The notes under the pieces: model-generated
Told to the model about the DNA's origin: nothing
The model's input: the letters and a program-made list of their open reading frames with translations, nothing else
Database searches by the model: none
Program-made: the position numbers and the translations under genes
Part shown: one piece after another, positions 10,026-56,950 of the stretch
Layout of the letters: each line of letters opens with the position of its first letter
How positions within the stretch are numbered: the stretch's first letter is position 1
Assembly: GCA_035276685.1 (NCBI GenBank)
Contig: DATELK010000065.1
Coordinates: forward strand, 10,387 to 74,386
Direction: 5' to 3'
From: Pyrinomonadaceae bacterium
Lineage (GTDB): Bacteria; Acidobacteriota; Blastocatellia; Pyrinomonadales; Pyrinomonadaceae
Length of the DNA stretch: 64,000 nucleotides

Positions 10026-10052
10026 CTGTTTGTCGTCTCTGAAACTGACCTA

Positions 10053-32454: not shown

Positions 32455-32524
32455 GGCTTGAAAGATTTCCGGCGAATCTGAAACCCTAGTAGATTGCGCG
32501 CGACAAATCAAGCGCACAGAAAGG

Positions 32525-32613
32525 AATTAACAGGGATAGACAGGATAGACAGGATAAAGAAGAAGCAAGCTCTTCTCTTTTTATCCTGTCTATCCTGTCT
32601 ATCCCTGTTAATT
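32525..32613. repeat. CAGGAT-hairpin repeat, copy A (palindromic ~85-bp intergenic element)
   Basis: AATTAACAGGGATAGACAGGATAGACAGGATAAA ... TTTATCCTGTCTATCCTGTCTATCCCTGTTAATT. The arms match perfectly for about 33 nt, and each arm carries three CAGGAT motifs. It lies 14 nt downstream of the stop of 32627..33646. Confidence 0.9.
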
Positions 32614-32626
32614 TCTCTTCCTCAAT

Positions 32627-33646
32627 CTAAGCTTGTGTGGCGGATTTCTGGCCGGTGTTGAAGATGCGCCCGCGCGGCTCGCCCTCCGCGTCGCTGTAAT
32701 AGTTGATGACGGTCTGGAGGATGCCGTCCAGAGACATGCGCGGGCTGAAGCCCACGAGCGATTGAACCTTGGAGATGTCGGGAACCCTTCGAGGCATGTC
32801 CTCGAAGCCCTCTTCGTAAGCCTCGTCGTAAGGCACGTAGACAATCTCGGAGGATGAGCTGGTCAGAGCCTTGACGCGCTCGGCCAGCTCACCGATTGTC
32901 ACCTCTTCGTTGGAGCCTATGTTGAATACCTGCCCGACCGCCTCGTCATGCTCCATCAGGCCAATCAGCGCCTCCACCACGTCGCCCACGTAGCCGAAGC
33001 AGCGCGACTGTTTGCCGTCGCCGTAAACCGTGATGGGACGGCCCGCCATGGCCTGCTTGACGAAGGTCGGGATGACCATGCCGTACTGGCCCGTCTGTCT
33101 GGGGCCTACGGTGTTGAAGAGGCGCACCACTACCGTCGGCAGCCGTTTCTCGCGCCAGTAGGCGAGGGCCAGAAACTCGTCAATCGCTTTGGAGCAGGCG
33201 TAAGACCAGCGCCCCTTCGTCGTCGCTCCCATGACAAGCTGCCCGTCCTCTCGGAAAGGCACTTCCGTTGAGAGGCCGTAGACTTCCGAGGTGGAAGCTA
33301 TGAGCACCTTCTTCTTCTTCTTGTTGGCGAGCGAGAGCATGACCTCCGTGCCATGCACGTTGGTCTCTATGGTTCTGACGGGGCTCTCAACTATGAGCTT
33401 GACTCCGACGGCTGCGGCCAGATGAAAAATCACGTCGCACTGGTCTACAAGCTCGGCCATCACGGGCAGGTTGCTCACAGAATCAATCGTGTAGTGAAAG
33501 CGCGGCTGTTCCTTGAGGTGCGCGATGTTCAGGAAGCTTCCCGTGGAGAGGTCGTCGACGACGAAGACCTCGTCGCCGCGCTCAATGTAGGCGTCCGACA
33601 GATGAGAGCCTATGAAGCCCGCGCCGCCCGTAATCAACACTCGCAT
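32627..33646 (-). CDS. NAD-dependent nucleotide-sugar epimerase/dehydratase (extended SDR; UXS/ArnA-C-terminal-like clade)
   Basis: MRVLITGGAGFIGSHL, STSEVYG, RWSYACSKAIDE (YxxxK). The substrate cannot be assigned from the sequence. Confidence 0.75.
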   Translation of the reverse strand: MRVLITGGAGFIGSHLSDAYIERGDEVFVVDDLSTGSFLNIAHLKEQPRFHYTIDSVSNLPVMAELVDQCDVIFHLAAAVGVKLIVESPVRTIETNVHGTEVMLSLANKKKKKVLIASTSEVYGLSTEVPFREDGQLVMGATTKGRWSYACSKAIDEFLALAYWREKRLPTVVVRLFNTVGPRQTGQYGMVIPTFVKQAMAGRPITVYGDGKQSRCFGYVGDVVEALIGLMEHDEAVGQVFNIGSNEEVTIGELAERVKALTSSSSEIVYVPYDEAYEEGFEDMPRRVPDISKVQSLVGFSPRMSLDGILQTVINYYSDAEGEPRGRIFNTGQKSATQA

Positions 33647-33677
33647 TCTACTTTTGTCTCCATTCTTAAAACGTCCC

Positions 33678-34691
33678 CTATGATTCCTGATAGCCTTCAG
33701 GGTGCGACTCGTGCCACTGCCACGCAGTCCCTATTATCTCTTCGAGCGAAGGGTAGCGCGGCTTCCAGCCTAGGACTTCAAACGCTTTGCTGGCGTCCGC
33801 CACCAGATGCGAAGGGTCGCCTGCGCGTCTGGCCTCGAATCGAACCTCAATCTCTTTGCCCGTCACGCGCCGCGCCGCCTCAATCACTTCCAGCACAGAA
33901 TAGCCCTGCCCGTTGCCCAGATTGAAGGCCGCGGACTCTCCGCCGCGCCCGAGGTAATCGAGCGCCGCAAGGTGCGCGCTCGCGAGGTCTGAGACGTGTA
34001 TGTAATCGCGCACGCAGGTTCCGTCCGGCGTAGGATAGTCACGACCGAAGACGGAGATGTGCGAGCGCTTGCCCTGAGCCGCAAAGAGCACGAGCGGTAT
34101 CAGGTGCGTCTCGGGCGTGTGGTCTTCGCCGCACGCCTCTGTTGCCCCGGCGGCGTTGAAGTATCGAAGCGCGACGAACCTTAAGCCGTAAGCGCGGTCG
34201 TAATCCCTCATGATTCTTTCCATGAAGAGCTTTGACGCGCCGTACGGGTTCGTAGGGTTCTGCGGGTGCTCTTCATGTAGCGGCAAGCCCTGCGGCTCGC
34301 CGTAGGTCGCGCAGGTGGAAGAGAAGACTATCTGCCTGACGTTTGAATCGAGCAGCGCATCGAGCAGCCGTATCCCCTGCGCGACGTTGTTCTGATAATA
34401 GCGCGCGGGCTTCTCCACGGACTCGCCGACGTAGGCGAAGGCCGCAAAGTGTATGCAGGCTTTCACGTCATGCTCGCTAACAATCCGGCGCACAAGCTCC
34501 GACTCGCCAATGCTTCCATGATAAAAGGGGACGCCTTCAAAGACCGCCTGCCTGTGGCCGTAGACAAGATTGTCTAGCACCACCACCTGCCTGCCCTCCG
34601 CGAGCAGCATCTCCACGGTGGCGCTGCCTATGTAGCCCGCGCCGCCCGTCACCAGCACCGTGCCCTTCTCCCGCCCGCTACTCTGACTCAA
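33678..34691 (-). CDS. galE: UDP-glucose 4-epimerase
   Basis: [70 protein letters not shown]. Canonical GalE. Confidence 0.9.
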
Positions 34692-34704
34692 AGAAGCTTC
34701 CCCT

Positions 34705-36027
34705 TCATCTTCCTCCGCCCAGACCCTGCAAGACGGCCTTGTGCGTCTTCCCGCCCATCAGCATCTCCCGGTAGAGGCCCGACACGTCCTTCAACAGCCG
34801 CTCCTTCGAGTAGCTCGTTTCGACAAAGCTTGCCCCGCGCTCGCCCATCTCGCGGCGCAAAGTTTCGCTCTCAATCAAACAGGCCAGAGCTTCGGCGAAG
34901 GCTTCGGCGTTGCCGGGCTCTACCAGCACGCCGCGCTCACGCAGAGTGTAGCCTACAGGCGCGCTCCCGGCTAATGCGGAGCTATTCTCCTCGCCCAAGA
35001 GGTCTACGACACCGCCCACGCCCGTGGCGACGACGGCGCGACCATTCGCCATCGCCTCAATCAGAGTAAGCGGCGTCCCTTCGTTCAAAGATGTCAGCGC
35101 CACTATGTCCAGCGCCGGGTAAAGCCTTTCGAGGTCGCTTCGCGTACCCATAAAAGTTACGTCCGTCTGAACCTGAAGCTCGCGCGCCTGAGCCTCAAGC
35201 CCCGCGCGCAGGTGCCCGTCGCCGATAATCAGGAAACGAACGCGCCTATCATTCTTTCCGTGCAGCTCCCTGTAGCGCGCGACCGCTTTGAGAAAGAGCG
35301 AGTGGTTCTTGACCTCCGTGAGCCTGCCGATTATACCCACGGCCACGTCCTCGTCACCCAGGCCCAGCTCATCGCGCATCAGCTTACGTCGCGAGCGCCA
35401 GTCCGCGAAAGCCGAGGTGTCCAGCCCCAGAGGGATGACGGCAAACTGCTTTTCGCGACCTACATGAAACTCGCTGTGAATCTCCCTGTACTGCTGCGGG
35501 CTGATGGCGATGATGCGGTCTGTAGCCAGTAGGGCCAGCATCTTTTCTATCGCCAGAAAGAGGCGCGTCTTCAGGTGGCCGTAGTAGCTGTGGAAGATGT
35601 GGCCGTGATAGGTGTGAACGAAGAGGCACGAGCGCCTTCGGCCGAGAAGCGCGCCCGGCGTGAGCCAACTGTAGAGCAGCCCCGCGAGGCGTCCCACAGT
35701 CCCGGCCTTGGCCGTGTGCGTGTGAACAATGTCGGGCCGCCACTTCAGAAAAAGACGATAGAGCTTCCAGACGGTCACTATGTCTTTCGGAGAAATCTCG
35801 CGGCTCATCTGCGGGATAATTATCGGCGAGACGCCGTGCTCTGCGGCGAAGTAGCTCATGTCGTCTTCGCCGGGCGGAACCCGGCCCGTCACGAGCAGCG
35901 TCTTCCAACCCTCACGCTCAAGCCCTTCGTTCAACCAGACGACGTGGCGCGCGGGCCCGCCGACGTTGAGACGGGCGATGATACGCACTACCTTCGGATA
36001 AAGCTCGCCTGAGCCGACTTCACTCAT
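34705..36027 (-). CDS. Glycosyltransferase family 4 (GT-B, Glycos_transf_1)
   Basis: [17 protein letters not shown]; C-terminal [27 protein letters not shown] (EX7E-type region). Confidence 0.85.
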
Positions 36028-36037
36028 TTACTTCAGT

Positions 36038-37600
36038 CTAGTCCTGCGCCGGGGTCATAGCCGAACAGTCATAGACGCGCAGGGTAGCGCGGTCAAGCCT
36101 GCGGCATCTTCCCAGAAGCGCGCGAATGCCCTCGCCCTCGCGGCTGAAGAGCCTGGTTCTGTACGAGGGGATAACTACCATGCGGCCCGCTACCTCTTCC
36201 GGGGTCACGAGCCTGTACTTGCCCTTCTCGCGCACGTAGATTTGGTCTTCGTCAAAGGAGAGGTCAATAGGCCTGATTTTATAGTCGGGCCCGAGGTAGT
36301 GCTGGTAAATCTGCGCGCCGTTCATAAGCGCCTCGCGCTCGCCAATTACACCTTTGAGCCATGCTATGTCCTCGCGAGGCGCGGCGTCGTCCAGCATAGT
36401 GTGCAGCTTGCTTGCCCACGCGGTCGTCACCACCAATGCAGCCATGATAACTAAAAGGGCTGCGGCTGCCGTTGTCCTAGCGGGCCTTGCGGAAACGAAG
36501 CTGTCAACGGCAAGGCCTACCATGCAGGCGAGCGGCGCGAGCGCAGGCACGAGGTACTGCGGGACGAGCCCGAACGGAGTCACGACGATGATGATGATGG
36601 CGTAGACGACGCCTATCACCATGAAGGGGCCAAAGCTGCGCGTCTTCTCCCTGTGCGCGTAAAAGAGCCACGCGCAGGCCGCAATCACTGGCAGAGAGAT
36701 GGGCAGCAGGGTTAAGAAAGGCGCAAGCGTGCGGCGGTATTCCTGCCCCTGCAAAGACCTGTAAAAGATGACAATCGGCGTCTTGAAGAAAGAGGCCTTG
36801 AGGACGGAGCCCGGCCAGAAGAGAACGACGAACAGCGCCGTGAGCCCCGTGCCAATCAACACGTAGCGCCAGAAGCTGAGGCTCCTTATTCCTGAAACCC
36901 CGAGCGGCTTCCATATGAGAAGCGCTAGAAGAACAGCCGCCACCACCACCAGCCCCGTCTCAAGGCTCACGACCGTCAGCGCCACGGAGGCGCACAGCAG
37001 GAGGCCCGCCCTTCTGTCGCCGTCCTTTAACCAGCGGCTCAGGAAAGCCGCCGCGAGAGTCGTCCACACGGAGAGCCAGCCGTGATTCGATAGAGAGTAG
37101 AAGGCCAGATAGCTCAAGCCTATCCCGAAGACGAGAACGGCGAGCATGCCCGCGAGCGTGGGCGCGTCGGAAAGCTGTCGGTAGGCGTAAAAGAGCGCGC
37201 AGAGGAAAGCCAGAACTCCAAGAAGCTGTCCTATGCGTATGGCGCGGTCGCTCTCGGAATTAAGCAGAGGAGTCGTCGCGGCCGTCACGTAGGCTATGAA
37301 CGGAGGATGATAGTGCCTCAGGAGCAGCGGGTCTTTCTGCTCGTCATACTGCGGCGGGTAGGCTGGCTCCACGCCTTTGCGCTTGGAGTTGATGAACCCG
37401 AAGAACTCAAGGGGCGAGAGCGAGCCACGGTCTATGTAGTTAGTCACGAGCCCGAGGCGCGAGGCGTTATAGTAATCCACCTCGTCCAGATTCATGATGG
37501 TGTTGTGCAGGGGCCACAGCGCGAGGATGACCGCGACCCAGCCCACGAGGATTAAGCCTCCGAGCAGCTTATATGAAGAATGTTGACGGTTATCTTTCAC
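36038..37600 (-). CDS. GT-C fold membrane glycosyltransferase (ArnT/PMT-like, GT39/83-like)
   Basis: 520 aa and polytopic. The first-loop acidic motif NLDEVDYYNASRLG resembles the ArnT/PMT DE motif. It sits with a polyprenol-P sugar synthase-like GT2 two genes upstream. Confidence 0.55.
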   Translation of the reverse strand: MKDNRQHSSYKLLGGLILVGWVAVILALWPLHNTIMNLDEVDYYNASRLGLVTNYIDRGSLSPLEFFGFINSKRKGVEPAYPPQYDEQKDPLLLRHYHPPFIAYVTAATTPLLNSESDRAIRIGQLLGVLAFLCALFYAYRQLSDAPTLAGMLAVLVFGIGLSYLAFYSLSNHGWLSVWTTLAAAFLSRWLKDGDRRAGLLLCASVALTVVSLETGLVVVAAVLLALLIWKPLGVSGIRSLSFWRYVLIGTGLTALFVVLFWPGSVLKASFFKTPIVIFYRSLQGQEYRRTLAPFLTLLPISLPVIAACAWLFYAHREKTRSFGPFMVIGVVYAIIIIVVTPFGLVPQYLVPALAPLACMVGLAVDSFVSARPARTTAAAALLVIMAALVVTTAWASKLHTMLDDAAPREDIAWLKGVIGEREALMNGAQIYQHYLGPDYKIRPIDLSFDEDQIYVREKGKYRLVTPEEVAGRMVVIPSYRTRLFSREGEGIRALLGRCRRLDRATLRVYDCSAMTPAQD

Positions 37601-37643
37601 AGGTTCTACAGAACAGAAGAAACGGCTCGTCTTTCGGAATCCT

Positions 37644-38348
37644 TTAGCGTTTACGGCAGAGCACCTGATACTGCGTGCCTAAGGGCAGACGTGATACGTG
37701 CGGCTCTATGAAACGCAGCGCTCGCAGCATTCTGGGAAAGATGAACAGGAAGTCTGTGCGTAGAATCTCGAAGCCTCCGTCCTGAAGAAGGCGGCGGGCT
37801 TCCGGCGGAGTCAGCGTGATGGCGTCGCGGTCAAACGGGATGCGGCTCATCACGTAACGCGTCCCCGGATTCCAGGGATTATTCTCCCAGAAGGAGAAGA
37901 GCCCGCCCGGACGAAGCGAGCGATGTATGTAGTCAACGGCCCCTCTGCGCTGCGCGGGCGGGATGTGATGAAAGACGCCGTTACAGAAGCTGAGGTCTAT
38001 CTGCTCTTTGGGCTTGTGCTCGTCGAGCAGCATGAACTGTGTCTTGTCCGAGCCGTGATGGGCTCTGGCGACCTCAAGCGATTTGGCGGAATTATCAACG
38101 CCCGTCACAGACTCTGCCCCCACAATCTCATGCAGGAAGGGCGCGGAGGTGCCTGTGCCGCAGCCGAAATCAAGAGCCCGTGCAGGCCGCTCGCCCAGTT
38201 TCGCCAGACAGTCCGCGAGCCACATCGCACGGCCGCGCGCGAAGTAGTGCTTGTCCTCGCCGGAGACGGCCAGGCCCTGCTCAAGCGCCGCGTCATACTC
38301 GGTCGCGTAGCCGTCGAACTCGGCTTTATAAGAAGAATGAGTGCTCAT
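37644..38348 (-). CDS. Class I SAM-dependent methyltransferase
   Basis: ALDFGCGTGTSAPFL, FCNGVFHHI. ATGA overlap with the upstream GT2 stop. Confidence 0.8.
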   Translation of the reverse strand: MSTHSSYKAEFDGYATEYDAALEQGLAVSGEDKHYFARGRAMWLADCLAKLGERPARALDFGCGTGTSAPFLHEIVGAESVTGVDNSAKSLEVARAHHGSDKTQFMLLDEHKPKEQIDLSFCNGVFHHIPPAQRRGAVDYIHRSLRPGGLFSFWENNPWNPGTRYVMSRIPFDRDAITLTPPEARRLLQDGGFEILRTDFLFIFPRMLRALRFIEPHVSRLPLGTQYQVLCRKR

Positions 38349-39565
38349 CGTCGTCGCATCCCCAAAATGCTGACAAAGAAGCTGGACAGGACAGTCTGAA
38401 AGCCCAGCGCCGTCAGGGTCGCGCCCGGTATGACCCAGCGCATGGTGTGGCTGTAATCAAGGTGGCCGAAATCTATCAGCCGCCACTGGTTCATCGCCGA
38501 CACGAGAAGCGCCAGTCCTATCAGCAGGCTTCCTGCTCCCAGAATCAACCCTCTCTCCAGATTAACAATCTCGAAGAAGCGGTTCATGCGCGGGTCGTCC
38601 GGCATGAGCCCTTCGCTGATGGCGAAGGTCTTGGAGAAGATGGCGAAGAGGATTGATTGATAGCCGCAGAGAATCGAGAGGCTGGCAAAGAGCAGCGTGT
38701 GCGCGTCAAAGGTGATGCCCTTAATGGTCACGCCCGGAAGCGCCAGAGCGTAGCCCACGAGTCCAAGCAGGATGAGCAGAGCGCCCGGCGCGAGGAAGAG
38801 CCAGCGCGGGCTGTACATCAGAAAGAAGCGAAGCGTGCGCCAGCCGTCGCGGAAAGTCTTCAGGTGCGGAGCATGAGAGGTGCGCCCGTCCGGATGCAGC
38901 GTAATCGGCACTTCAGTTATGCCTACACGATAGAGGCTCGACTTGATAATCATCTCGGTCGCGAACTCCATCCCCGTGCAGCGCAGGTCTAGCCGGTTAT
39001 AAAGCTCCTTGGTGAAGCCGCGCAGGCCGCAGTAAACGTCATGAATCGGCGCGCGAAACCACTTGCGAACCATCATGGAGAACATCGGGTTGCCCCACCA
39101 GCGATGCAGGAAAGGCATGGCACCCGGCAAGACCTGTCCCCCGCCCCTTGGCAAGCGGCATCCCTGCACGAGGTCGAAGCCCTCTCTTAGCTTCTCTACA
39201 AACTTTGGCACTTCGAGGAAGTCGTAGGAGTCGTCTGCGTCTCCCATGATGACGAAGCGGCCGCGAGCGGCAGCGATGCCGCCCTGTAGAGCGCTGCCGT
39301 AGCCCTTGGCCTCTACGTTGATGACGCGCGCTCCCAGACGGGTCGCGATGTCCTGAGAGCCGTCCATGCTGCCGTTGTCCGCGATGATGATTTCGCCGTC
39401 TATCTTGTGCTCAGTGAGCACGCGCTGGGCTTTCCTGATACAGGTCTCAAGCGTGTCTGCCTCGTTCAGGCAAGGCATCACGATTGACAGCTCCACGGGT
39501 CGGTCGCCGTTTGTCTCGGGCGCTGCGACCTGCTGCTCGCGCGTCAGGTTATCTTCAACCAGCAT
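38345..39565 (-). CDS. GT2 polyprenol-phosphate glycosyltransferase (ArnC/GtrB/DPM1-like) with C-terminal TM helices
   Basis: ELSIVMPCLNEADTLETCI, IIADNGSMDGS, MGDADDSYD. Four C-terminal TM helices. Confidence 0.8.
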   Translation of the reverse strand: MLVEDNLTREQQVAAPETNGDRPVELSIVMPCLNEADTLETCIRKAQRVLTEHKIDGEIIIADNGSMDGSQDIATRLGARVINVEAKGYGSALQGGIAAARGRFVIMGDADDSYDFLEVPKFVEKLREGFDLVQGCRLPRGGGQVLPGAMPFLHRWWGNPMFSMMVRKWFRAPIHDVYCGLRGFTKELYNRLDLRCTGMEFATEMIIKSSLYRVGITEVPITLHPDGRTSHAPHLKTFRDGWRTLRFFLMYSPRWLFLAPGALLILLGLVGYALALPGVTIKGITFDAHTLLFASLSILCGYQSILFAIFSKTFAISEGLMPDDPRMNRFFEIVNLERGLILGAGSLLIGLALLVSAMNQWRLIDFGHLDYSHTMRWVIPGATLTALGFQTVLSSFFVSILGMRRR

Positions 39566-39727
39566 CTATACACTCCTTGCAAAAATATCCGGGGCGAGCC
39601 GGGCAGCAAACCATCTGCGGAAAAAGCGGCCGTGATGAAAAAGGTTCGCTTGTGCCTCTGACCCCGGAAATGCTTATGAGGTTACCTTGCTTGAGGTCAG
39701 AAGCTAAATCAGAGACCGGCTCTCTAC

Positions 39728-40240
39728 TTAAAAGCTCTCGTCCATACTGAAAATCGTTCGGGGGTCGTCCTCGTGCCTGATTACGTCCACCTCTTCGAGG
39801 CGGCCCTCGCCCATGTAAAGCCTGTTGGGAAAGTTGAGCACTAGGCCGACACTGCTTCCCACGTTGCTATAAGCATGCACCACGCCCTTGGGAACCAGCA
39901 CGGACTTAGGATTGTCTTCGCCCACCATGAGCGTCATCACGTTACCGTAGGTCGCGGAGTCGGCTCGATTGTCCCAGAGGCGCAGCTTGAAGCTCGACGG
40001 GCCTATGAAGCAGAAGAAGTCTGCCTGACTCGTGTGCTCGTGCGGCCCGCGCGCAACGCCCGGATGAGTCTCCGAGACGTAGGCCATCTGCGGATAGAAC
40101 TCTTCGGCCAGTTGGTCGTGGCGGAACAGCTCGGCCAGCCACCCGCGCCCGTCACTGTGCTTCTGAATATCACGGACTTGGACGCCCACTATCTCTCCCT
40201 GCTTAAATGTCAGCGGCGACGCCTCAGGCTTCGGCTGCAT
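39728..40240 (-). CDS. RmlC-like cupin (NDP-4-keto-6-deoxyhexose epimerase/isomerase family)
   Basis: HSDGRGWLAELFRHDQ ... GVARGPHEH ... VPKGVVHAYSNVG. ATG at 40240 (MQPKPEASPL) is preferred. The track TTG at 40336 lies deep inside the upstream gene. Confidence 0.6.
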   Translation of the reverse strand: MQPKPEASPLTFKQGEIVGVQVRDIQKHSDGRGWLAELFRHDQLAEEFYPQMAYVSETHPGVARGPHEHTSQADFFCFIGPSSFKLRLWDNRADSATYGNVMTLMVGEDNPKSVLVPKGVVHAYSNVGSSVGLVLNFPNRLYMGEGRLEEVDVIRHEDDPRTIFSMDESF

Positions 40241-40976
40241 CTTCCGTCTCCATCTTGTTCGCGCCCGTCCTGGCCACCAGATTAGAAGCGTAGAGCAGAC
40301 TATCAAACGTTCCGGCGTCCGTCCACCAGCCCGCAAGCTCCTCCCACGTCATCATGCCCCTCGTGATGTAGGCATTGTTGACATCCGTAATCTCAAGCTC
40401 GTGGCGCGCGGAAGGCACCAGGCCGCGTATGATGTCGAAAACTTCCGAGTCGTACATGTAAAGGCCCGTGACCGCGTATTCCGACTTGGGAACTTCGGGC
40501 TTCTCTTCTATGCGGAGAATCGTGCGGCCGTCCATCACAGGCACGCCGAAGCGCTGCGGGTCCGGAACCTTCTTCAGGATAATCTTCGCGCCCCGGCCCT
40601 GCTCCGCGTAGGCACGCACGGCGCGGCAGATGTTGCCCTCGATGATGTTATCTCCGAGGGCGACGCAGACCGCCTCTTTGTCCGCGAAGTCTTCGGCCAA
40701 GGCGAGAGCGGCCGCGATGCCGCCTTCGCCTTCCTGATAAGTATAGTCCAGATGCGTCAGGCCGAAATCGCGCCCGTTCTTGAGCAGCCGCAGAAAGTCA
40801 CCCGCAGAGTTTCCCCCGGTGACAATCATTATCTCTTTTATCCCGGCGTTTATGAGTGTCTGGATGGGGTAATATACCATAGGCCGGTTGTAGACGGGCA
40901 ACAGGTGCTTGTTCGTCACAGCCGTCAAAGGCATAAGCCGCATCCCCAACCCACCGGCTAACACGACACCCTTCAC
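40224..40976 (-). CDS. Sugar-1-phosphate nucleotidyltransferase (short glucose-1-phosphate thymidylyltransferase-like)
   Basis: MKGVVLAGGLGMRLMPLTAVTNKHLLPVYNRPMVYYPIQTLINAGIKEIMIVTG. Confidence 0.8.
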   Translation of the reverse strand: MKGVVLAGGLGMRLMPLTAVTNKHLLPVYNRPMVYYPIQTLINAGIKEIMIVTGGNSAGDFLRLLKNGRDFGLTHLDYTYQEGEGGIAAALALAEDFADKEAVCVALGDNIIEGNICRAVRAYAEQGRGAKIILKKVPDPQRFGVPVMDGRTILRIEEKPEVPKSEYAVTGLYMYDSEVFDIIRGLVPSARHELEITDVNNAYITRGMMTWEELAGWWTDAGTFDSLLYASNLVARTGANKMETEDAAEA

Positions 40977-41028
40977 TTTGAGCAGAACCCCTCGGGCAGG
41001 ATAGATAAGAGCAGGTCAGGCCTCTTTG

Positions 41029-42912: not shown

Positions 42913-42963
42913 GTTCGGATTCCTATGAGAGGAGACTCTATGGGGCAAAGGTGAGCGAAGGCT

Positions 42964-44412: not shown

Positions 44413-44439
44413 ATCAGCAACTTAAAGCGCAGGGCGAGA

Positions 44440-45528
44440 CTAGCTCATGGAACTCACACGGGCGGAACTACCCTGGAACACTCCTTCGATAAAATCAATC
44501 TGACGGGAGAGGCTGAACTGCTCTTCGGCCGTGCGGCGCGCGGCGCGTCCCATCTCCAGCCGCAGCTCAGGATTCTCCAACAGCGTCTTGAGCCTAGCGT
44601 ACCACTCATCATCGGAATCCGCCAGAAAGCCGTTCTCGCCGTCCCTGATTATCTCCTTGTTCGAGCCCGTGGCGGTGGCGACCACCGGCATCCCCAGACT
44701 CATGTACTGAATCAGCTTGAAGAAGAACTTCCAGGGGCTCCATACGCTCTCCTTCACAGGCACGATGCCAATCTGGCACTCCTGAAGCCTAGGCACCTCT
44801 ATGTCGTAAGCCCAAGGGATGAACTCCACCTCCACGCCGGGCAGAGTCATGGGCTCGTCCGCTATGACGCGAAGTATCGTCCCGTGCGATTCACGCAGAC
44901 GCCTGAGCGGCTCCGTGACTAGCTCTACGTTCGGCTGGTTCGTGAATGTGCCGACCCAGCCGATGCGCGGCGGCACAAGCTCCTTTCGGGGCGCGGGGCT
45001 GTACCTCTCCGTGTCCACGGCCATAGGGACTATGGAGACCTGCTTGGCAAAGCGCTCTGCATAATCCCCTATGGCCTTATTGACCGCGAGCACGTGGTCG
45101 CTCATCTCAAGCAGCGTGTTGACCTTCGAGAAGAACTTGAGCATGTTGAGACGCCCGTTGCTTGGACTGACGTAAGGGACAAAGAGCGGCTCGTCTATGT
45201 CGTAAATGATGGGAGCCTTCCAGCGCCGCGTGAGCCGCTCTATCCAGGCGGGCCCTATGAGCGCAGCCTCCCTGTAGATGTATATGGCGTCGGGGCGCGA
45301 GGCACGCAGCACTCGGCTCAACTGCTCAACGTAGCAGCGCAGCATCTCCCGGCCCTTCTGAAGTGTCTGTCCCTGATTATAGAGCCTGCCGGTCAGAGAA
45401 GGGCTGGCAAAAGGGTAATACTCGACCTCTATGCCCCGCCCCGTGAGGTGCTTGGCCCAAAGCTCTATCCTGAACCTCTGCCCGGCGCAGAAACCCGTGT
45501 GATAAGGAACGATTGCAGCAACTTTCAT
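44440..45528 (-). CDS. Glycosyltransferase family 4
   Basis: C-terminal YMSLGMPVVATATGSNKEIIRDGENGFLA (GT-B Glycos_transf_1 signature). Confidence 0.8.
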   Translation of the reverse strand: MKVAAIVPYHTGFCAGQRFRIELWAKHLTGRGIEVEYYPFASPSLTGRLYNQGQTLQKGREMLRCYVEQLSRVLRASRPDAIYIYREAALIGPAWIERLTRRWKAPIIYDIDEPLFVPYVSPSNGRLNMLKFFSKVNTLLEMSDHVLAVNKAIGDYAERFAKQVSIVPMAVDTERYSPAPRKELVPPRIGWVGTFTNQPNVELVTEPLRRLRESHGTILRVIADEPMTLPGVEVEFIPWAYDIEVPRLQECQIGIVPVKESVWSPWKFFFKLIQYMSLGMPVVATATGSNKEIIRDGENGFLADSDDEWYARLKTLLENPELRLEMGRAARRTAEEQFSLSRQIDFIEGVFQGSSARVSSMS

Positions 45529-45582
45529 AAATCAAGAAGAACAATTCTATTAGCGAACGGCCGCAAATTCAAAGCGGACTCA

Positions 45583-45666
45583 AACAGGATGGACAGGATA
45601 AGCAGGATAAAAGAAGAATAAATGCTTTCTCTTTTTATCCTGTGCATCCTGTCCATCCCTGTTAAT
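45583..45666. repeat. CAGGAT-hairpin repeat, copy B
   Basis: AACAGGATGGACAGGATAAGCAGGATAAAAGA ... TCTTTTTATCCTGTGCATCCTGTCCATCCCTGTTAA. The arms are imperfect. The TAA stop of 45662..46573 is the TTAA of the repeat. Confidence 0.85.
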
Positions 45667-46573
45667 TTCCTTCTCTGCTCCACCACTCAATCGTTTCGGC
45701 AAGGCCGTCCGAGAGGCTGTAGGCCGGAGTCCAGCCGACCTCTGTTTTTAGCCGCTCGACATCGGCGACGATAAGCGGCGGCTCAGTCTCAGGCGTGGGC
45801 AGCGCTCCGAGCCTCACAAGCTCGCGCCCGCCTATCTGGTCTGCGATACGGCGTACAATCTCTCTAACCTCTACAGGCTCGCCCGAAGCTATGTTGACCG
45901 CGCCCGACACGTCGCTCTCTAAAAGCGAGACGAAGGCGGAGGCCACATCCTGCACGTGCAGGTAATCCCTGACTTGAGTCCCTGCTGTGCAGGCCACCGT
46001 CTCGCCTCGGAGCAGGCCGCGTATGACGTGCGGCACTAGACGCGCGGGGTGCTCGTGCGGCCCGTAAAGGAAGAAGATTCGTCCCCACGCCGCGCTCACG
46101 TTTAAGCCCCCGGCCGCCGCGTCCAGCATCAAAGAGAGCGCGTGCTTCGACGCACCATACAGCGTTTGAGGCAGAAGCGGCGTACTCTTCTCGGAGCAGA
46201 TGCACTGGCTCCAATCATACTCGGCGCAGGTGCCCGCCATGACCACGCGCTCGCCGCCTGCGCGAGCAAACTGCTGCAACAAATCGAGGCTCGCCTGAAC
46301 CCACGCGAGATTCTCAAGGGCCGTCCAGTACTTGCCCGGCACAGCGTACCATGCAAGGTGCAGCAGAGAGTCGGGCCGCACGCGCGCCAGAAGCTCAGAG
46401 ACCTCCGAAGGATTGAGCAGGTCTGCGCGGTGCCACGTGACCTCTTTTGAAAGACCTTCGGGCGGTAAGCTCCTTGAGACGGCGTGGACTTCCACCAGTT
46501 CACGCGAGGCGAGCTGTGGCAGAGCGTGCCTGCCTATAAACCCGCCCGCGCCTGTCACCAAGACTCTCTTCAT
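45662..46573 (-). CDS. NAD(P)-dependent sugar epimerase/reductase (SDR), probable terminal 4-ketoreductase of the CDP-sugar module
   Basis: MKRVLVTGAGGFIGRHAL, YGASKHALSLML (YxxxK). ATGA overlap with the upstream epimerase gene. Confidence 0.7.
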   Translation of the reverse strand: MKRVLVTGAGGFIGRHALPQLASRELVEVHAVSRSLPPEGLSKEVTWHRADLLNPSEVSELLARVRPDSLLHLAWYAVPGKYWTALENLAWVQASLDLLQQFARAGGERVVMAGTCAEYDWSQCICSEKSTPLLPQTLYGASKHALSLMLDAAAGGLNVSAAWGRIFFLYGPHEHPARLVPHVIRGLLRGETVACTAGTQVRDYLHVQDVASAFVSLLESDVSGAVNIASGEPVEVREIVRRIADQIGGRELVRLGALPTPETEPPLIVADVERLKTEVGWTPAYSLSDGLAETIEWWSREGN

Positions 46574-47100
46574 CCTGCGAAGTCCGGGAAGCTCTCATCG
46601 CGCTCAGACATGACGCGCTCCGCTATGGGCCAGCGAAAGTCGAAGCCGGGGTCGTTCCAGCGAACGCCACGCGCGTACTCCGGCTGGTAGAGTGCTGAAA
46701 TCTGGTACAGCACCTCCGTCTCGTCTTCCAGAGTCTGAAAGCCGTGCGCGAATCCCTCCGGTATGTAGAGCATGCGGAAGTTCGAGGCCGTCAATTCCAC
46801 GGCGAACCATTTTTTGAAAGTCTCGGACGCGGGCCTGAGGTCAACAATCAGGTCGTAGAGAGCGCCGCGAGCGCACCTGACGAGCTTCGCCTCCTCGAAG
46901 GGCGCGGCCTGATAATGAAGCCCTCGCAGCGTCCCGCGCTTGAGATTGAAAGAGGTGCTGCACTGCTCCAGATGCTGATTGAGGCCGTGCGCCTCGAACT
47001 CCTCGCGGCACCACGTTCGCGCAAAGTAGCCGCGCTCGTCCCTGTGCGGCTCCATCTCTATGACGTAAGCTCCCTTCAAAGGAGTCTCTGTGAACTTCAA
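46570..47100 (-). CDS. NDP-4-keto-6-deoxyhexose 3,5-epimerase (RmlC family)
   Basis: LKFTETPLKGAYVIEMEPHRDERGYFARTW ... RGLHYQ ... IPEGFAHGF. A TTG at 47100 overlaps the upstream TGA (TTGA) and gives a typical 176-aa RmlC. The track ORF extends to 47196. Confidence 0.8.
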   Translation of the reverse strand: MKFTETPLKGAYVIEMEPHRDERGYFARTWCREEFEAHGLNQHLEQCSTSFNLKRGTLRGLHYQAAPFEEAKLVRCARGALYDLIVDLRPASETFKKWFAVELTASNFRMLYIPEGFAHGFQTLEDETEVLYQISALYQPEYARGVRWNDPGFDFRWPIAERVMSERDESFPDFAG

Positions 47101-48332
47101 GCTATAACCTCTACCTGCGGGATGGGCACGACGAAGCGTGCGCCCCACTCGCGCGCGTAAGTACTCTGCGCCATTATCTCTTCGCGCAGGTTCCAAGGCA
47201 GTATCAGCACGTAATCCGGCCGCGTCTCTTTCAATTTGTCAGGGTGATGTATGGGGATGCGCGTGCCGGGCAGGTATCGCCCCTGCTTGTGCGGGCTAGC
47301 GTCCACCGTGTACTCGATGAAGTCGGTGCGTATGCCGCAATAGTTCAGGAGCGTGTTGCCCTTGGCGGGCGCGCCGTAAGCCGCAACGCGCTTGCCCTCG
47401 CGCCGCGCCCCTATCAGAAAGGTAAGGAGCGAGCGCTTCGTCTCTTCCACCTGCGCGGAGAAGCCCAAGTATGTCTCAAGTCTTCGCGTGCCAAATGAAA
47501 GCTCGCGCTCTTTAAGCTCATCAACACGCTCCGAGAGAGGCTTGCTCTCATCCTCCATGTGGCGCGCGTAGATTCTGAGCGAGCCGCCGTGCGTCTCAAG
47601 CTCTTCGACATCAAACAGCGTCAGGCCGTGACGCGCGAAGACCTCTTCGACCGTGAGGAAAGAGAAGTAAGAGAAGTGCTCGTGATAGATGGTGTCGAAC
47701 TGGTTGCCCTCCATGAGCCGCATCAGGTGCGGGAACTCCATGGTGACGACGCCCTGCGGCTTCAGCAGAATCTTCAGCCCTTCCACGAAATCGTTGAGCG
47801 CGGGCACGTGCGCCAGCACGTTGTTGCCTAGCAGAAGGTCTGCTTGCTTGCCTTCCGCCGCGAGCCTCGTAGCTAGCTGGCTCCCGAAGAACTCAGTGAT
47901 GGTCGGCACTCCCTTTTCTTCGGCCACGCGCGCGACGTTCGCCGCAGGCTCTATGCCGAGCGAAGGCACGCCGCCGTTTACGAAGTATTGCAGGAGGTAG
48001 CCGTCGTTGCTCGCTATCTCGACGACGCGGCTCTCCGCGTTCAGACGGAAGCACTCTCGCATCTGCTCCGTATACTTCCTGGCGTGTCTCAGCCACGACT
48101 CGGAATAGGATGAGAAGTAGGCGTAATCCTGAAAGATGTGCTCGGGGCTTTCGAACTCTTCCAACTGTACTAGGAAGCAGCGGTGGCAGACGTAGGCGTG
48201 AAGCGGATAGAAGGGCTCCATGCGGCTCAACTGCTCCGGCGCGAGGTAAGAGTTGGAGAGAGGCGAGACACCTAAGTCAACAAAGGTGTGCTGTAGCTCC
48301 GTGCCGCAGAAACGGCAGACTGATTGACTCAT
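47097..48332 (-). CDS. NDP-hexose C-methyltransferase (TylCIII-like, N-terminal Zn ribbon + SAM MTase + C-terminal domain)
   Basis: [30 protein letters not shown] is the hallmark N-terminus of sugar C3-methyltransferases. VVEIASNDGYLL is the SAM motif. Confidence 0.75.
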   Translation of the reverse strand: MSQSVCRFCGTELQHTFVDLGVSPLSNSYLAPEQLSRMEPFYPLHAYVCHRCFLVQLEEFESPEHIFQDYAYFSSYSESWLRHARKYTEQMRECFRLNAESRVVEIASNDGYLLQYFVNGGVPSLGIEPAANVARVAEEKGVPTITEFFGSQLATRLAAEGKQADLLLGNNVLAHVPALNDFVEGLKILLKPQGVVTMEFPHLMRLMEGNQFDTIYHEHFSYFSFLTVEEVFARHGLTLFDVEELETHGGSLRIYARHMEDESKPLSERVDELKERELSFGTRRLETYLGFSAQVEETKRSLLTFLIGARREGKRVAAYGAPAKGNTLLNYCGIRTDFIEYTVDASPHKQGRYLPGTRIPIHHPDKLKETRPDYVLILPWNLREEIMAQSTYAREWGARFVVPIPQVEVIA

Positions 48333-49426
48333 AGCCCTTCCCCTTCCTCTACGGAATCCTGAAAGGCTCGAATCTGCTCAAGCGAGAAGGCCTGCACGTC
48401 CTCGCCGTTCTGATAAGCCCTGTACCAGTTGACAGTCTCTTTCAAAGTCCTCTCCAAGGGCCAGCGCGGCCGCCACTCAAGATGCGTGCGCGCCTTGGAG
48501 CAATCAAGCTTCAGGTAGTGCGCCTCGTGCGGGTGCAGGTTTTTATCAATCGCCCACGCAGCCTTGCCCTCTCTCGAAGACCAAAGCTCGGACAGGCGGC
48601 GGACGACGTGCTCCACCGTCTGCGCGTCCTCTTCGCGCGGCCCGAAGTTCCAGCCCTCACTGTAAGCCGCCGCGTCCTCGCAGAGCTTTTCGCAGAGCAG
48701 CAGGTAGCCGTGAAGCGGGTCGAGCACGTGCTGCCACGGGCGCACCGCGCGGGGGCTTCGTATAGCCACCTCGCGCCCCTCCATCCAGCTCTTGATGATG
48801 TCAGGCACGAGCCTGTCCTCGGCCCAGTCGCCGCCGCCCAGCACGTTGCCCGCGCGTGCCGATGCGACCGCAGTCGTGCCCTTCTCTCCCGATTGAAAGA
48901 AGGAGCTTCGCATGGCGGAGGTGACAAGCTCCGCGCAGCCCTTGCTTGAGGAGTAAGGGTCGTGGCCGCCCATGCTTTCGGTTTCTCTGTAGCCCCAGAC
49001 CCACTCACGATTTTCGTAGCACTTGTCGCTCGTGACCACGACCACTGCCCTCACAAAATCGGAGCCCGAGCGACGCACGGCCTCAAGCACGTTGACCGTG
49101 CCCATCACGTTCGTCCCGTAGGTCTCAACCGGATTAGCATAGGAGCGGCGCACGAGCGACTGCGCGGCCATGTGTATGATGATTTCGGGACGGCGGCTCT
49201 CAATCAACTGGCTCACGCGCTCGAAGTCGCGCACGTCGCCCGTCACGGACTCCACCTGCTCACTTATGCGCGCCAGTTGAAAGAGGCTAGGCGTAGTCGG
49301 AGGCTCAAGCGCGTAGCCCGTGACACGCGCTCCCATCTCCGCCAGCCAGAGCGAGAGCCAGCTTCCCTTAAAGCCCGTGTGCCCCGTCAAGAGGACTCTT
49401 TTATCTCTCCAGAATTCGGGTCTCAT
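48329..49426 (-). CDS. rfbG: CDP-glucose 4,6-dehydratase
   Basis: [52 protein letters not shown] 49426 forms an ATGA overlap with the rfbF stop. Confidence 0.85.
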
Positions 49427-50196
49427 TCCCAGACCTTCCAGGGCGCTTTCCCGGTGGCCCATAGCTCTTCCAGTTGATGCTTGTCGCGCAAAGTATCCAT
49501 GGGCTGCCAGAAGCCCTTATGAAAAAAGGTCGAGAGCTGGCCCTCGGATGCAAGCCTCTCCATGGGCTCCTGCTCCCAGACCGTCTGGTCGCCCTCTATG
49601 TAATCAATGACCTTGGGCGAGAGGATGAAGAAGCCGCCGTTTATCCAGCCGTCGCCCGAAGGCTTTTCACGAAAGCTCGTGACGCGGCTTCCGTCAACGA
49701 CGAGCGCGCCGAAGCGTCCCGGCGGCTGGACGGCCGTCACGGTCGCCAAAGTCTTCTGCGCTTTGTGAAACTCTACGAGCGCGCCTATGTCTATGTCGGC
49801 CAGCCCGTCGCCGTAGGTGAAGCAGAAGTCCGCATCATCAAGATAATTTCGCACGCGCTTGAGACGCCCGCCCGTCATCGTCTCCGCGCCCGTGTCAACG
49901 AGCGTGACTCTCCACGGCTCGGCGTAGTTCTGATGCACGCGCATCTCGTTGCGCTCTATGTCGAAGGTGATGTCGGACATGTGCAGGAAGTAGTTGGCGA
50001 AGTACTCCTTGATGATGTAGCCCTTGTAGCCGCAGCAGATGATGAAGTCGTGTATGCCGTGCGCGGAATAGGTCTTCATGATGTGCCAGAGGATAGGCTT
50101 GCCGCCAATCTCCACCATGGGCTTGGGCTTCATGCTGGTCTCTTCGCTGAGGCGGCTTCCCATGCCGCCCGCCAGGATAACGGCTTTCATGCTCAT
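49423..50196 (-). CDS. rfbF: Glucose-1-phosphate cytidylyltransferase
   Basis: [64 protein letters not shown]. Canonical RfbF. Confidence 0.9.
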
Positions 50197-50945
50197 CTCT
50201 CTAATTGCGCGCTCTCGTCTTCAAAATCATCCGGCAGGTCTGGCCGCGTCTTCTGCTCTACAAGGAACCGGTCGTCCTCGCTCAGGGGCTTTATAGGCTT
50301 TGCAGGCACGCCCGCTATCAGGTAGTACTCGCCCGTCAGTTGCCCTGTGACGACAGCGCCGATGCCTACGATGCAGCGCGAGGGAATCCGGCTCCCGGGC
50401 GCGACTCTTATCTCCGAGCCTATGTAAGTGAAAGAGCCAATCTCTATGGGGCGCGTCCTCTGACGGTTGTGCGTCCAGAGCGACGAGTTGCGCCCGCCCA
50501 GGATTGTACGGCGTCCAATCTCCACGCGGTCTGTGAAATCAATCTTGTGGCCCGTGGTGACGATGCTCGCGTCGCCGAGCAGAAAGCGCGGCTCAAGCTT
50601 ATTGACGGCGATGGGCTCGGGGATGGAGTTAATCTCGTTGAGACGGATTATCTCGGAATAGCGGCCGAGCCTGACTTCTTCGCCGCCGCGTATGATGTTG
50701 AGATGGCCTATGCGCGCGTGGTCTCCTATAGAAAGCTTTTCCACCCCTATGACAAGATTCAGGTGGCCTATGCGAACGTCGTCCTCAATCGTGCAGTTGC
50801 GAGCGTCTATGATGCTGAAGCCGATGCGGACGCGCTTGCCAATGCTATAACCGAAGAAGAGGCGATAGCAAATACGCTTGAGGAACGAGGGCAATACCGC
50901 TATCCCGGCCAAGCCAAGCAGCCGGAACTTACCTGTTCGATGCAT
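50193..50945 (-). CDS. Left-handed beta-helix (hexapeptide-repeat) acyl/acetyltransferase
   Basis: Repeated [LIV]G..x motifs ([38 protein letters not shown]; [21 protein letters not shown]). N-terminal hydrophobic segment. Confidence 0.75.
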
Positions 50946-51007
50946 TCAAAGCCCGCCATTCTGGCCATAGAGATTAAAAAGCAAGTCATTCAGTATATAA
51001 CGGATTC

Positions 51008-51088
51008 TAACAGGGATGGACAGGATAGACAGGATGAAAGTGAAAGCTATTTCTTCTTTATCCTGTTCATCCTGTCCATCCCTGTTAA
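51008..51088. repeat. CAGGAT-hairpin repeat, copy C
   Basis: TAACAGGGATGGACAGGATAGACAGGATGAAAG ... TTTATCCTGTTCATCCTGTCCATCCCTGTTAA. It supplies the TAA stop of 51085..52296. Confidence 0.85.
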
Positions 51089-52296
51089 TTCGTTTCTTTT
51101 ATGCGCTCGTAGACGCTTCTGTACCGTGTGCCGCCGACGCCCACGAGGTCGAAGTTGCGGCGCGCGGCATCAAGAGAGCGCTCCTTTATATCCGCTTCCG
51201 ACGCAAGAGCGAGCGCGCGGCGCGCGGCCTCCCTGTAAGCGTCCGCGTCAAGCTCTTCAACGACGACGCCCACGCGCTCCTGTTCCAGCATCTCGTCCAT
51301 GTCGCCCACGCCCGCGTTGCAGACTACTACGAGCCCGGCTGCGAGGTACTCGGCAATCTTCGTGGGCGAGGCGGCAATCTGTGAAAAGGCAGGCTTGCGA
51401 AAGGAGAGCCCGAGGCGTGCGCGGCGAAGGTGTCGCGGCACTTCAGCGGGCGCGACCGCGCCTATATGGAAATCGTCAGGCTTCAGGCCTACGCTTTCGA
51501 GTCGCGCGGCAGCCTCCTTCGGCTCCGAAGCGGTCATGATGTTAAGAAAGGCTTCGGGTCTCTCTGCGCGCACGGCCAGAAAGAAGCGGCCCATCTCTTC
51601 CAGCAGGTAAAGCCCCGTCACGCTTCCGGCGTAAGTGACTACGAAGCGCTCTTCCGGTTCGGGCTGAAGCTCCTGCCCGTTCTGCGCGAAGCGCGAGAAG
51701 TCCACGCAGCATGGAATCACTTCTATCTCGTCTGCGCTAGCAAGCTTCTGCTCCACGAGCCAGTCCTTCATGCGGCGCGTCAGCACTACAAGTTGGTCTG
51801 CCCTCTTTATCCCTGCACGCTCCAGCCGCTTTACCATTCGAAACGGCAGAGAGCCTTCGGCCCAGACCTGCGCGTCGGCGTACTCTTCCGCCACTAGCCC
51901 GCGTATGTCGAAGATAAGACGGCAGCGCGTGACCCTGTGTGCCAAGAGCGCCATCGCCATAGCTATGTGCGCCCGCGCGTGCAGCACGTCAATCCTGTGA
52001 CGCTGAATCAGCCGCACGGCCGCCCACGCGCCCATCAGCACGTCGTAGGCAGTCGCGGGCATGGACGGCCGCTTGTGATACGGCAGTGAGAGCCAGCGTA
52101 TGCCCTGCTCCATTAGCCTCGCGCGCTCTGCTTTAAGCTCCTCGTCGTTCCATCGCTCCTTCATACGCGGCTCGAAGGTCAGCAGGTAGACTTCAATTCC
52201 AGCGCCTGCCAGTTGTCGCAGGTAAGGCAGCACCTGCGTCTGAACCAGCGGCTCGCGCAGACCGAAATAGCAGAGGTATAGCGTGCGGATTCCCAT
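51085..52296 (-). CDS. Glycosyltransferase family 4
   Basis: GT-B architecture; C-terminal FSQIAASPTKIAEYLAAGLVVVCNAGVGD. Flanked on both sides by CAGGAT-hairpin repeats. Confidence 0.75.
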   Translation of the reverse strand: MGIRTLYLCYFGLREPLVQTQVLPYLRQLAGAGIEVYLLTFEPRMKERWNDEELKAERARLMEQGIRWLSLPYHKRPSMPATAYDVLMGAWAAVRLIQRHRIDVLHARAHIAMAMALLAHRVTRCRLIFDIRGLVAEEYADAQVWAEGSLPFRMVKRLERAGIKRADQLVVLTRRMKDWLVEQKLASADEIEVIPCCVDFSRFAQNGQELQPEPEERFVVTYAGSVTGLYLLEEMGRFFLAVRAERPEAFLNIMTASEPKEAAARLESVGLKPDDFHIGAVAPAEVPRHLRRARLGLSFRKPAFSQIAASPTKIAEYLAAGLVVVCNAGVGDMDEMLEQERVGVVVEELDADAYREAARRALALASEADIKERSLDAARRNFDLVGVGGTRYRSVYERIKETN

Positions 52297-52310
52297 CTAA
52301 AGCGTATTCA

Positions 52311-52389
52311 AACAGGGATGTGCAGGATGAACAGGATAAAGAAGAGATGCTTTATCTTTTATCCTGCCTATCCTGTCCATCCCTGTTAA
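52311..52389. repeat. CAGGAT-hairpin repeat, copy D
   Basis: AACAGGGATGTGCAGGATGAACAGGATAAAGAAGA ... TTTTATCCTGCCTATCCTGTCCATCCCTGTTAA. The last 13 codons of 52352..53383 (EINRDGQDRQDKR) are read from this repeat. Confidence 0.85.
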
Positions 52390-56775: not shown

Positions 56776-56780
56776 AAACA

Positions 56781-56872
56781 GGTCAGTACCGCCTGCGGTA
56801 GCGGGCGGGTTATTAGATAAGCATGACTCTAGCCCAACTGATACCCGCCCGCTACCGCAGGCGGTACTGACC
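56781..56872. repeat. 92-bp palindromic element, copy 2
   Basis: GGTCAGTACCGCCTGCGGTAGCGGGCGGGT - 32-nt loop with CATGACTCTAG - ACCCGCCCGCTACCGCAGGCGGTACTGACC. Same orientation and homologous loop as 9934..10025. Confidence 0.9.
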
Positions 56873-56950
56873 TAACTCTTTGAAAAACGCTGATGACAAA
56901 CAGCCACATATATAACTCTTTGGCGCAACTGATGCGTTAAGTATGACGGA

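Follow-up and report, generated by a model that had tools for sequence, protein, structure and literature searches.

CAGGAT hairpins in a glycan locus of a Pyrinomonadaceae bacterium belong to a high-copy palindromic family whose arms also enclose a GxxExxY gene

Four long inverted repeats, referred to here as E1 to E4, lie in a stretch of 64,000 nucleotides of DNA (the window) from a Pyrinomonadaceae bacterium, and the question raised by this locus is what kind of element they are and what has brought them there. The window comprises C65:10387-74386 of the 5.42-Mb, 245-contig assembly GCA_035276685.1, which is labelled G000 below; the comparison genomes are G001-G007, with G001-G005 as the named congeners and G004 as a closed genome. 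An earlier note on this DNA (the original prediction) had placed the elements at 32525..32613, 45583..45666, 51008..51088 and 52311..52389 and had described each of them as a long inverted repeat with three (A)CAGG(G)AT words per arm; all coordinates are correct and the description is true of all four. E1-E4 are members of a high-copy palindromic family with about 320 copies, and their arms are the arms which enclose the only GxxExxY gene of the genome. Our interpretation, to which we assign a probability of roughly 0.6, is that they are the gene-less hairpins of a nuclease cassette, forming a system similar to that of repetitive extragenic palindrome (REP) hairpins (REPINs) and the REP-associated tyrosine transposase (RAYT), and built like an rRNA intervening sequence (IVS).

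The search for the repeat seed throughout G000, which had been suggested as a check, was performed with an nhmmer profile and gave 323 loci constituting 0.67% of the assembly; exactly four of these are within the window. A regular-expression count gave 243 copies, and the reversed pattern, used as control, had no match in the genome. With 323 loci versus none for the reversed pattern, the four elements are not due to chance, and the idea that the genome might hold only these four copies is clearly refuted. For an anatomical profile, 461 element ends were anchored on the outer word. Each half of the element has a purine run on the outside, followed by AATTA and three ACAGGAT words; beyond an imperfect centre, these parts recur as their mirror image. 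Conservation of the purine run extends to about -14, which gives a full length of ~100-110 bp; the size of ~85 bp proposed originally is thus too small by ~14 nt on each side, where the purine run or the pyrimidine run is located. Conservation reaches 89-100% at the bases of the words and 37-77% at linker positions. The tips are AATTA in most copies and TTCAA in the others: one tip is nearly always AATTA, TTCAA occurs on both sides in 2 of 232 copies, and 72 of 232 have unlike tips, with TCAA at one end and ATTA at the opposite one. The cores of 230 out of these 232 copies are unique. Arm mismatches had been described as uncompensated, and this holds genome-wide: the 3-nt linkers between words 2 and 3 are complementary in 31 of 127 canonical copies, compared to an expectation of 28.0 +/- 4.1. 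At their innermost 4 nt, the two arms matched in 5 cases versus 43 expected, i.e. the centre is intrinsically asymmetric. Constraint acts on the words and not on pairing in itself, a pattern which points to recognition of the words rather than to selection for a perfect stem. It also fits the multi-site protein-binding module that had been put forward, as each element possesses six CAGGAT words, conserved to 95-99%, with floating linkers; binding itself is predicted.

When pairs of CAGGAT arms 250-1600 nt apart were sought in G000, the only gene enclosed as a unit was a GxxExxY gene. At C171:23028-23481 (~455 bp), the arms flank an open reading frame (ORF) encoding 120 amino acids, and the other 322 copies are gene-less. 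The ORF matches TIGR04256 with 136.9 bits (cut-off 35) and PF13366 (PDDEXK_3) with 135 bits (cut-off 22); according to tblastn and a search with hidden Markov models, it is the only GxxExxY gene of G000. Residues D65, E75 and K77, which represent the D...ExK motif of PD-(D/E)XK enzymes, are invariant in 44 sequences. The AlphaFold model of the protein has a pLDDT of 94.9, and the folds most similar to it are those of Cas4 SSO0001 and lambda exonuclease (top matches TMq 0.52-0.60), followed by restriction-endonuclease-like proteins, splicing endonucleases and Hjc. By motif and fold, the cassette encodes a putative minimal PD-(D/E)XK nuclease. A sequence search of the PDB returned only spurious matches to ketol-acid reductoisomerase and no solved relative. 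PADLOC had no match for the nuclease, and a role as defence system was rejected for this reason. G004 also holds a GxxExxY cassette, and its protein is 83% identical to that of G000. No homology exists over 1.4 kb on either flank of the two cassettes; hence their sites are non-orthologous, and the unit of gene and arms sits at different sites in different species. The ratio of non-synonymous to synonymous differences, pN/pS, is 0.11 for this pair (pS is saturated at 0.81), and the arms hardly differ. Joining the two loop junctions of the cassette to each other gives a sequence similar to the centres of the short elements, so that the short hairpins fit a cassette deprived of its ORF and may have arisen by ORF loss.

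The association of arms and gene extends far beyond this genus. In a scan of one genome per species, 563 GxxExxY relatives were found, and the arms were analysed for the best 75 of these 563 loci. Flanking inverted word-arms with a score of at least 16 were present at 44 of the 75 loci, compared to 7.7 in shuffled controls; they consist of words of 7-9 nt, e.g. CACGGAG, CACAGAG, GCAAAG, CACGAA or CAGGAT. Across six phyla, the arm word co-varies with the clade of the GxxExxY protein: placed on the protein tree, the words require 32 changes (null mean 46, minimum 42 in 300 shuffles), and CAGGAT alone requires 4 changes versus 8.7 under the null model. Genes with CAGGAT arms occur in Chloroflexota, Latescibacterota, Planctomycetota, Verrucomicrobiota and Gemmatimonadota. 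Nine genomes with such a gene contain 9-153 CAGGAT-NNN-CAGGAT arrays each, versus 3-17 in eight control genomes whose genes have other arms (Mann-Whitney p = 5e-4). As there are only 2-11 GxxExxY genes in each of the nine, gene-less hairpins outnumber genes. Between 68% and 73% of the GxxExxY cassettes are co-oriented with their neighbours; this value is uninformative, because it is close to the one for any bacterial gene.

A crude scan detected 527 long hairpins in G000, which belong to at least eight families. The only two PF05635 genes of this genome (C190:12032-12485 and C228:6116-6553), which encode four-helix-bundle proteins of the 23S-IVS type, both sit inside the arms of other hairpin families, namely GCAGAAGGCAGAGTGCAGAATGATGAAT (~110 copies) and GATTTTGGATTTTAGATTTTGGATT (~30 copies), and word-arms were present at all 16 PF05635 genes checked in the genus. 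The design of the hairpin cassette, in which the loop of a long stem may contain a small ORF and ORF-less forms exist as well, is that of 23S rRNA IVSs, which are excised by RNase III and are regarded as selfish and horizontally transferred (PMC4990558). Both the GxxExxY/PDDEXK_3 family and the four-helix-bundle family of 23S rRNA IVSs are abundant and annotated as being of unknown function (PMC3424549, PMC11270868), and our literature search found no paper linking GxxExxY or PF05635 genes to dispersed hairpins. A location in helix 25/45 of the 23S rRNA did not occur: all copies seen are intergenic, and the G000 assembly contains no 23S gene. At G004:C1:358980-363272, the 23S gene is ~1.4 kb longer than the model and carries two ORFs for LAGLIDADG homing endonucleases; this insertion is a probable case of group I introns. 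A 23S rRNA link in this lineage was rejected, given that the G004 insertion is of the LAGLIDADG type rather than a word-hairpin IVS and that G000 offers no 23S gene; the 23S genes of the relatives likewise showed no such IVS.

The hairpin families also meet each other. A complete hairpin of a GCAGA family is nested inside a CAGGAT tip at C107:2152-2324 of G000, and the main CAGGAT form of G004 (~145 nt, e.g. C1:1454-1598) contains an inner palindrome of TGCAAA words. The window itself harbours two copies of a second family (AACAGGTCAGTACCGCCTGCGGTAGCGGGCGGGT..., positions 9929-10030 and 56776-56877), which has ~130 arms per strand in the genome and has AACAGG...CCTGTT tips in common with the CAGGAT family; no ORF-bearing copy of it was found in G000.

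The position of the CAGGAT elements relative to genes was determined with a crude codon-bias gene caller made for this analysis, whose start codons are over-extended. Only 4 of the 323 copies lie inside called genes, all of them due to such over-extended starts; the others are extragenic. Convergent gene pairs account for 28% of the element sites (background 14%) and divergent ones for 11% (background 20%). Among the 263 element ends which face the 3' end of a gene, a stop codon is located at most 20 nt from the core in 200 cases and at most 13 nt from it, i.e. within the conserved flank, in 155; at 26 ends, a TAA belonging to the element itself serves as the stop. Direct flanking repeats of at least 5 nt do not occur beyond chance (4.33 vs 4.29). 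Stop codons and their immediate surroundings are where the hairpins land, and no long target duplication accompanies them. A fixed polarity relative to genes was considered and rejected, as TTCAA tips face the 3' and 5' ends of genes about equally (16% vs 19%). The tip variant TTCTA behaves differently, facing the 5' end of a downstream gene 17 times and a 3' end twice in the whole genome. In the outward direction, the variant tips read TTGAAT and TAGAAT and look like promoter hexamers; the E4 tip is 15 nt away from the next start codon (window 52296-52310).

The distribution among relatives is patchy. Per strand, G000 has ~195 CAGGAT arms, G004 ~95, and G002 ~100 with a looser pattern; G005 has one element. 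The closest relatives, G001 and G003, which share 85% and 84% nucleotide identity with G000 in the locus, possess neither CAGGAT hairpins nor a GxxExxY gene. Gene and hairpins are both present in G000 and G004, and G005 combines its single hairpin with the lack of a PF13366 gene. At the three sites compared, those of E2, E3 and E4, the orthologous positions of G001, G003 and G002 are free of CAGGAT elements, and the same is true of the E2 site in G005. The empty sites retain ancestral C-terminal codons; in G000, tails encoded by the elements are found instead. At the E2 site of G001 (orthologous to ~45580-45670), a different palindrome made of TTGATTCAT words is located, whose GAAGAAGAAATT tip is alike; this means that two hairpin families have hit one intergenic spot. 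A four-helix-bundle gene with TTGATTCAT arms is present in G004. The gene strand of the empty E4 site of G001 (orthologous to ~52300-52400) reads GAGTAA-CCCTGTTTTGAA, which places the terminal word of the element beside the stop codon; this word could represent a motif targeted by the element or a footprint of its excision. An exact-protein look-up led to one further assembly only, the independent short-read assembly SRR5195140 (Logan) of the same organism. Its contigs end inside E2 and E3, which shows the elements to be present there and these repeats to break assemblies. No insertion polymorphism was seen at E2 and E3 in this one assembly.

The features of the locus are compiled in the following table.

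Table: Coordinates and settings of the four hairpins and of the neighbouring promoter-like site (window positions)
Feature	Position	Strand	nhmmer envelope	Setting and remarks
E1 hairpin	32520..32618	.	32509-32628	AATTA tip at each side; between the TAG stop (32627-32629) of gene 32627..33646(-) and the start region of gene 30655..32517(-); RNA fold -70.4 kcal/mol, z -10.5
E2 hairpin	45582..45666	.	45560-45683	own TTAA (45662-45664) is the TAA stop of gene 45662..46573(-)
E3 hairpin	51008..51088	.	50995-51105	own TTAA (51085-51087) is the TAA stop of gene 51085..52296(-)
E4 hairpin	52311..52389	.	52295-52408	
Promoter-like TTGAAT-17-TAGAAT	45544..45572	-		directly downstream of E2 on the gene strand; outside the element

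In E1-E4, the words are spaced at 9 bp around an imperfect purine/pyrimidine centre. As predicted, the right end is constant, with CCCTGTTAATT on the plus strand of all four; the left ends are AATTAACAGGG in E1 and TCAAACAGG, TCTAACAGGG and TCAAACAGGG in E2-E4. The surrounding genes are on the minus strand, and three upstream genes have their stop codon inside an element. The last codons of the gene upstream of E3 (..IKETN and stop) come from the element, and the G001 orthologue terminates with ..YERVRMQS and stop. Gene 52352..53383(-) runs 38 nt into E4 and ends with REEEINRDGQDRQDKR instead of the ancestral AAQDEKE found in G001, each followed by the stop. Folded as gene-strand RNA, the elements reach -44.6 to -70.4 kcal/mol with z values from -7.3 to -10.5, and none of 200 shuffled sequences was as stable. 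An Rfam search of the elements gave sub-threshold matches to plant and animal miRNA precursors only, that is, to generic long hairpins, and an identity of this kind was rejected. The elements had been said to lack a T-tract and not to be canonical terminators. Indeed, a terminator scan called none of the four, and the gene-strand tails following the stems (GUUUGAGU, GUUAGAAU, GUUUGAAU and GUUAAUUCC) do not provide the combination of GC-rich stem and U run that characterises an intrinsic terminator; a canonical Rho-independent terminator was rejected accordingly. The location of all four inside one operon has to be corrected for E2, which lies at a transcription-unit boundary, as the promoter-like site follows directly. 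The ATTCTATTAGCGAAC block under this site is conserved in four congeners, and the transcription unit therefore probably starts just after E2.

A mechanism compatible with these findings would begin with the loss of the ORF from the cassette, giving rise to short hairpins in the way MITEs (miniature inverted-repeat transposable elements) derive from insertion sequences (ISs). The nuclease would recognise the CAGGAT words at their 9-bp spacing (three per arm, six per element) and would spread or maintain the hairpins in trans, analogous to the relation between REPINs and RAYT. Transcribed as part of the mRNAs of the glycan locus, each element would form a stem of 40-50 bp, a likely substrate of RNase III by analogy with 23S rRNA IVSs. 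Cleavage of the stem would not end transcription but would make the stabilities of the flanking cistrons independent of each other. Mobilisation of the hairpins by the nuclease and processing of their RNA by RNase III are both inferred. Several points weigh against this interpretation. To our knowledge, no GxxExxY protein has a known activity. Transposition was not observed, and, as nearly all cores are unique, there is no sign of a recent burst. In G002, whose assembly is 89% complete, the sole GxxExxY gene has CACAGAG arms, and its CAGGAT population appears orphaned. Sister hairpin families pair with four-helix-bundle proteins, which do not have the nuclease fold, so that a nuclease is no general requirement; several hairpin families of G000 exist without any ORF-bearing copy. 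Moreover, the CCCTGTTTTGAA word is already present at the E4 site of G001, and the three "empty" sites are ~15% diverged, which makes the exact insertion junctions uncertain. A generalisation would be that GxxExxY nucleases and IVS-type four-helix-bundle proteins are trans-acting partners of word-built hairpins, each clade reading its own array of 7-9-nt words, and that gene-less hairpins are copied, inserted or maintained at gene 3' ends without a transposase. We put this forward tentatively, the odds being somewhat against it.

The elements had been said to fit REP/MITE-like DNA, for which a RAYT/IS200-like or an IS630-like transposase was to be sought. In kind, this is right, as they are high-copy, intergenic, patchily distributed and missing at the orthologous positions in the closest genomes; the proposed drivers found no support, and the GxxExxY gene which does possess the arms had not been anticipated. 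That REP or REPIN elements are mobilised here by a RAYT, i.e. a Y1 transposase of the IS200/IS605 type, might be suspected because PF01797 (Y1) has five matches in G000 and twelve in G004, and because G001 and G003 lack both Y1 genes and hairpins. However, none of the five Y1/RAYT-like genes of G000 is flanked by CAGGAT elements: they are at least 2.2 kb away from any CAGGAT locus or on other contigs (the C28 copy is 35 nt from the contig end, where one flank is unseen). In addition, G002 has its hairpins and no Y1 gene, and G005, G006 and G007 have Y1 genes but 0-1 hairpins. The ends, with AATTA-ACAGGG or TTCAA-ACAGGG tips, also lack the GTAG or CGTC tetranucleotide that is the conserved tag at the 5' end of REPs (PMC3733652). 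We rejected the RAYT link and regard this explanation as very improbable. The sole RAYT-like gene with flanking arms, at C107:10270-10906, lies inside GC-rich inverted arms of its own (CCCCTGCCGGGGGCGAAATAACAGTAGCCCACGGCG...), which indicates that a conventional REP/RAYT system coexists with the word-hairpin families. Equally improbable is a classical MITE descended from and moved by a DDE transposase, e.g. one of the IS630/Tc1 type, in which case the AATT tip would conceal a duplicated TA or TTAA. The CAGGAT family does possess terminal inverted repeats, as MITEs do; these are perfect and contain internal repeated words, as in some transposon ends, and the tip has room for a palindromic duplication of 2-4 nt. 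Yet a strict TA/TTAA duplication fails because of the 72 copies with unlike tips, and longer direct repeats do not exceed chance. The arms 250-1600 nt apart in G000 enclose the GxxExxY gene and no transposase, i.e. no IS with CAGGAT ends was found there; in G004, paired arms among the matches listed are separated by 75-150 nt, with a single pair at 456 nt and no transposase unit. A parent IS was rejected on these grounds.

The hairpin itself could be the primary entity, spread or maintained by a host or trans factor or by palindrome replication or repair, with the small ORFs being cargo or loop insertions rather than the mobilising enzyme. Two unrelated protein families in one architecture, hairpin populations without a cognate gene (in G002 and in several families of G000) and nested or chimeric hairpins, which demonstrate that loops accept insertions, speak for such passengers. 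We nevertheless judge this unlikely, because the arm word follows the protein clade over six phyla, gene and arms occur as a unit at non-orthologous sites, the protein is under strong purifying selection, and hairpin abundance goes with the presence of a gene having cognate arms. It is also conceivable, if improbable, that the hairpins are no longer mobile and are kept at gene 3' ends for a host function, as mRNA stabilisers, attenuators, RNase III sites or arrays for binding a host protein. Conserved words with free linkers and centre, the uniqueness of nearly every copy, the tight spacing to stop codons, the enrichment between convergent genes and the very stable stems would all be expected in this case. 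The absence from the closest relatives, orthologous sites included, argues otherwise, as the loci work there without hairpins; furthermore, the elements are not canonical terminators, and CAGGAT arms travel across phyla with a selfish-looking gene. Note that a host function is compatible with a mobile origin.

The hairpin cassette is a widespread kind of mobile DNA of which we found no published description. With one nuclease gene, ~320 gene-less hairpins, closest relatives having neither, and a pairing of word and protein in six phyla, G000 offers an unusually clean handle on the two protein families and on the rise and spread of rRNA IVSs, and what would vaguely be called REP-like repeats becomes a testable protein-DNA system with defined words. 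If the two protein families are indeed trans-acting partners of the hairpins, they would define a pan-bacterial class of minimal mobile element, and both the origin of rRNA IVSs and the function of two large protein families would be explained. There are practical consequences for work on soil genomes as well: hundreds of genes owe their stop codon and C-terminal tail to the elements, which affects annotation, and the elements break short-read contigs during assembly. The elements also probably shape mRNA processing in long glycan operons.

Among known systems, REPINs and RAYTs of Pseudomonas and E. coli (PMC3116915, PMC3337134) resemble the CAGGAT family in several respects: short palindromes occur between genes in hundreds of copies, a gene present only once lies within such repeats, long target duplications are lacking, and the populations are patchy and lineage-specific, orphan ones included. 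In contrast, the CAGGAT gene encodes a ~120-aa GxxExxY protein of the predicted PD-(D/E)XK type and lies in the loop of one hairpin, whereas a RAYT is a Y1 HuH transposase encoded between separate REPINs; the CAGGAT arms are arrays of 9-bp words, whereas REPs are GC-rich sequences of 20-40 bp with a GTAG/CGTC tag. Leptospira is among the bacteria whose 23S rRNA has IVSs with an S23p/four-helix-bundle ORF, and the origin and spread of rRNA IVSs is an old open question. As in the 23S IVS of Coxiella burnetii (PMC4990558), a long stem, an optional small ORF, and ORF-bearing as well as ORF-less forms are found here, and the two PF05635 genes of G000 have exactly the IVS design with other word-arms. 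Unlike IVSs, the CAGGAT elements lie between protein genes and not in rRNA, reach ~320 copies per genome and carry a GxxExxY ORF instead of a four-helix-bundle ORF; excision by RNase III is suggested here only by the predicted stems. Correia/NEMIS elements of Neisseria, ERIC and RUP are bacterial MITEs which form hairpins at gene ends, and the Correia hairpin is cleaved by RNase III. The CAGGAT elements share with them a length of 100-150 bp, terminal inverted repeats, a position beside or overlapping gene ends, and presumably co-transcription (for a review of bacterial hairpin MITEs, see PMC3184786). They differ from these MITEs in lacking a demonstrable TA duplication and a parent IS, and in having arms made of tandem words as well as a putative nuclease gene which is enclosed by the same arms.

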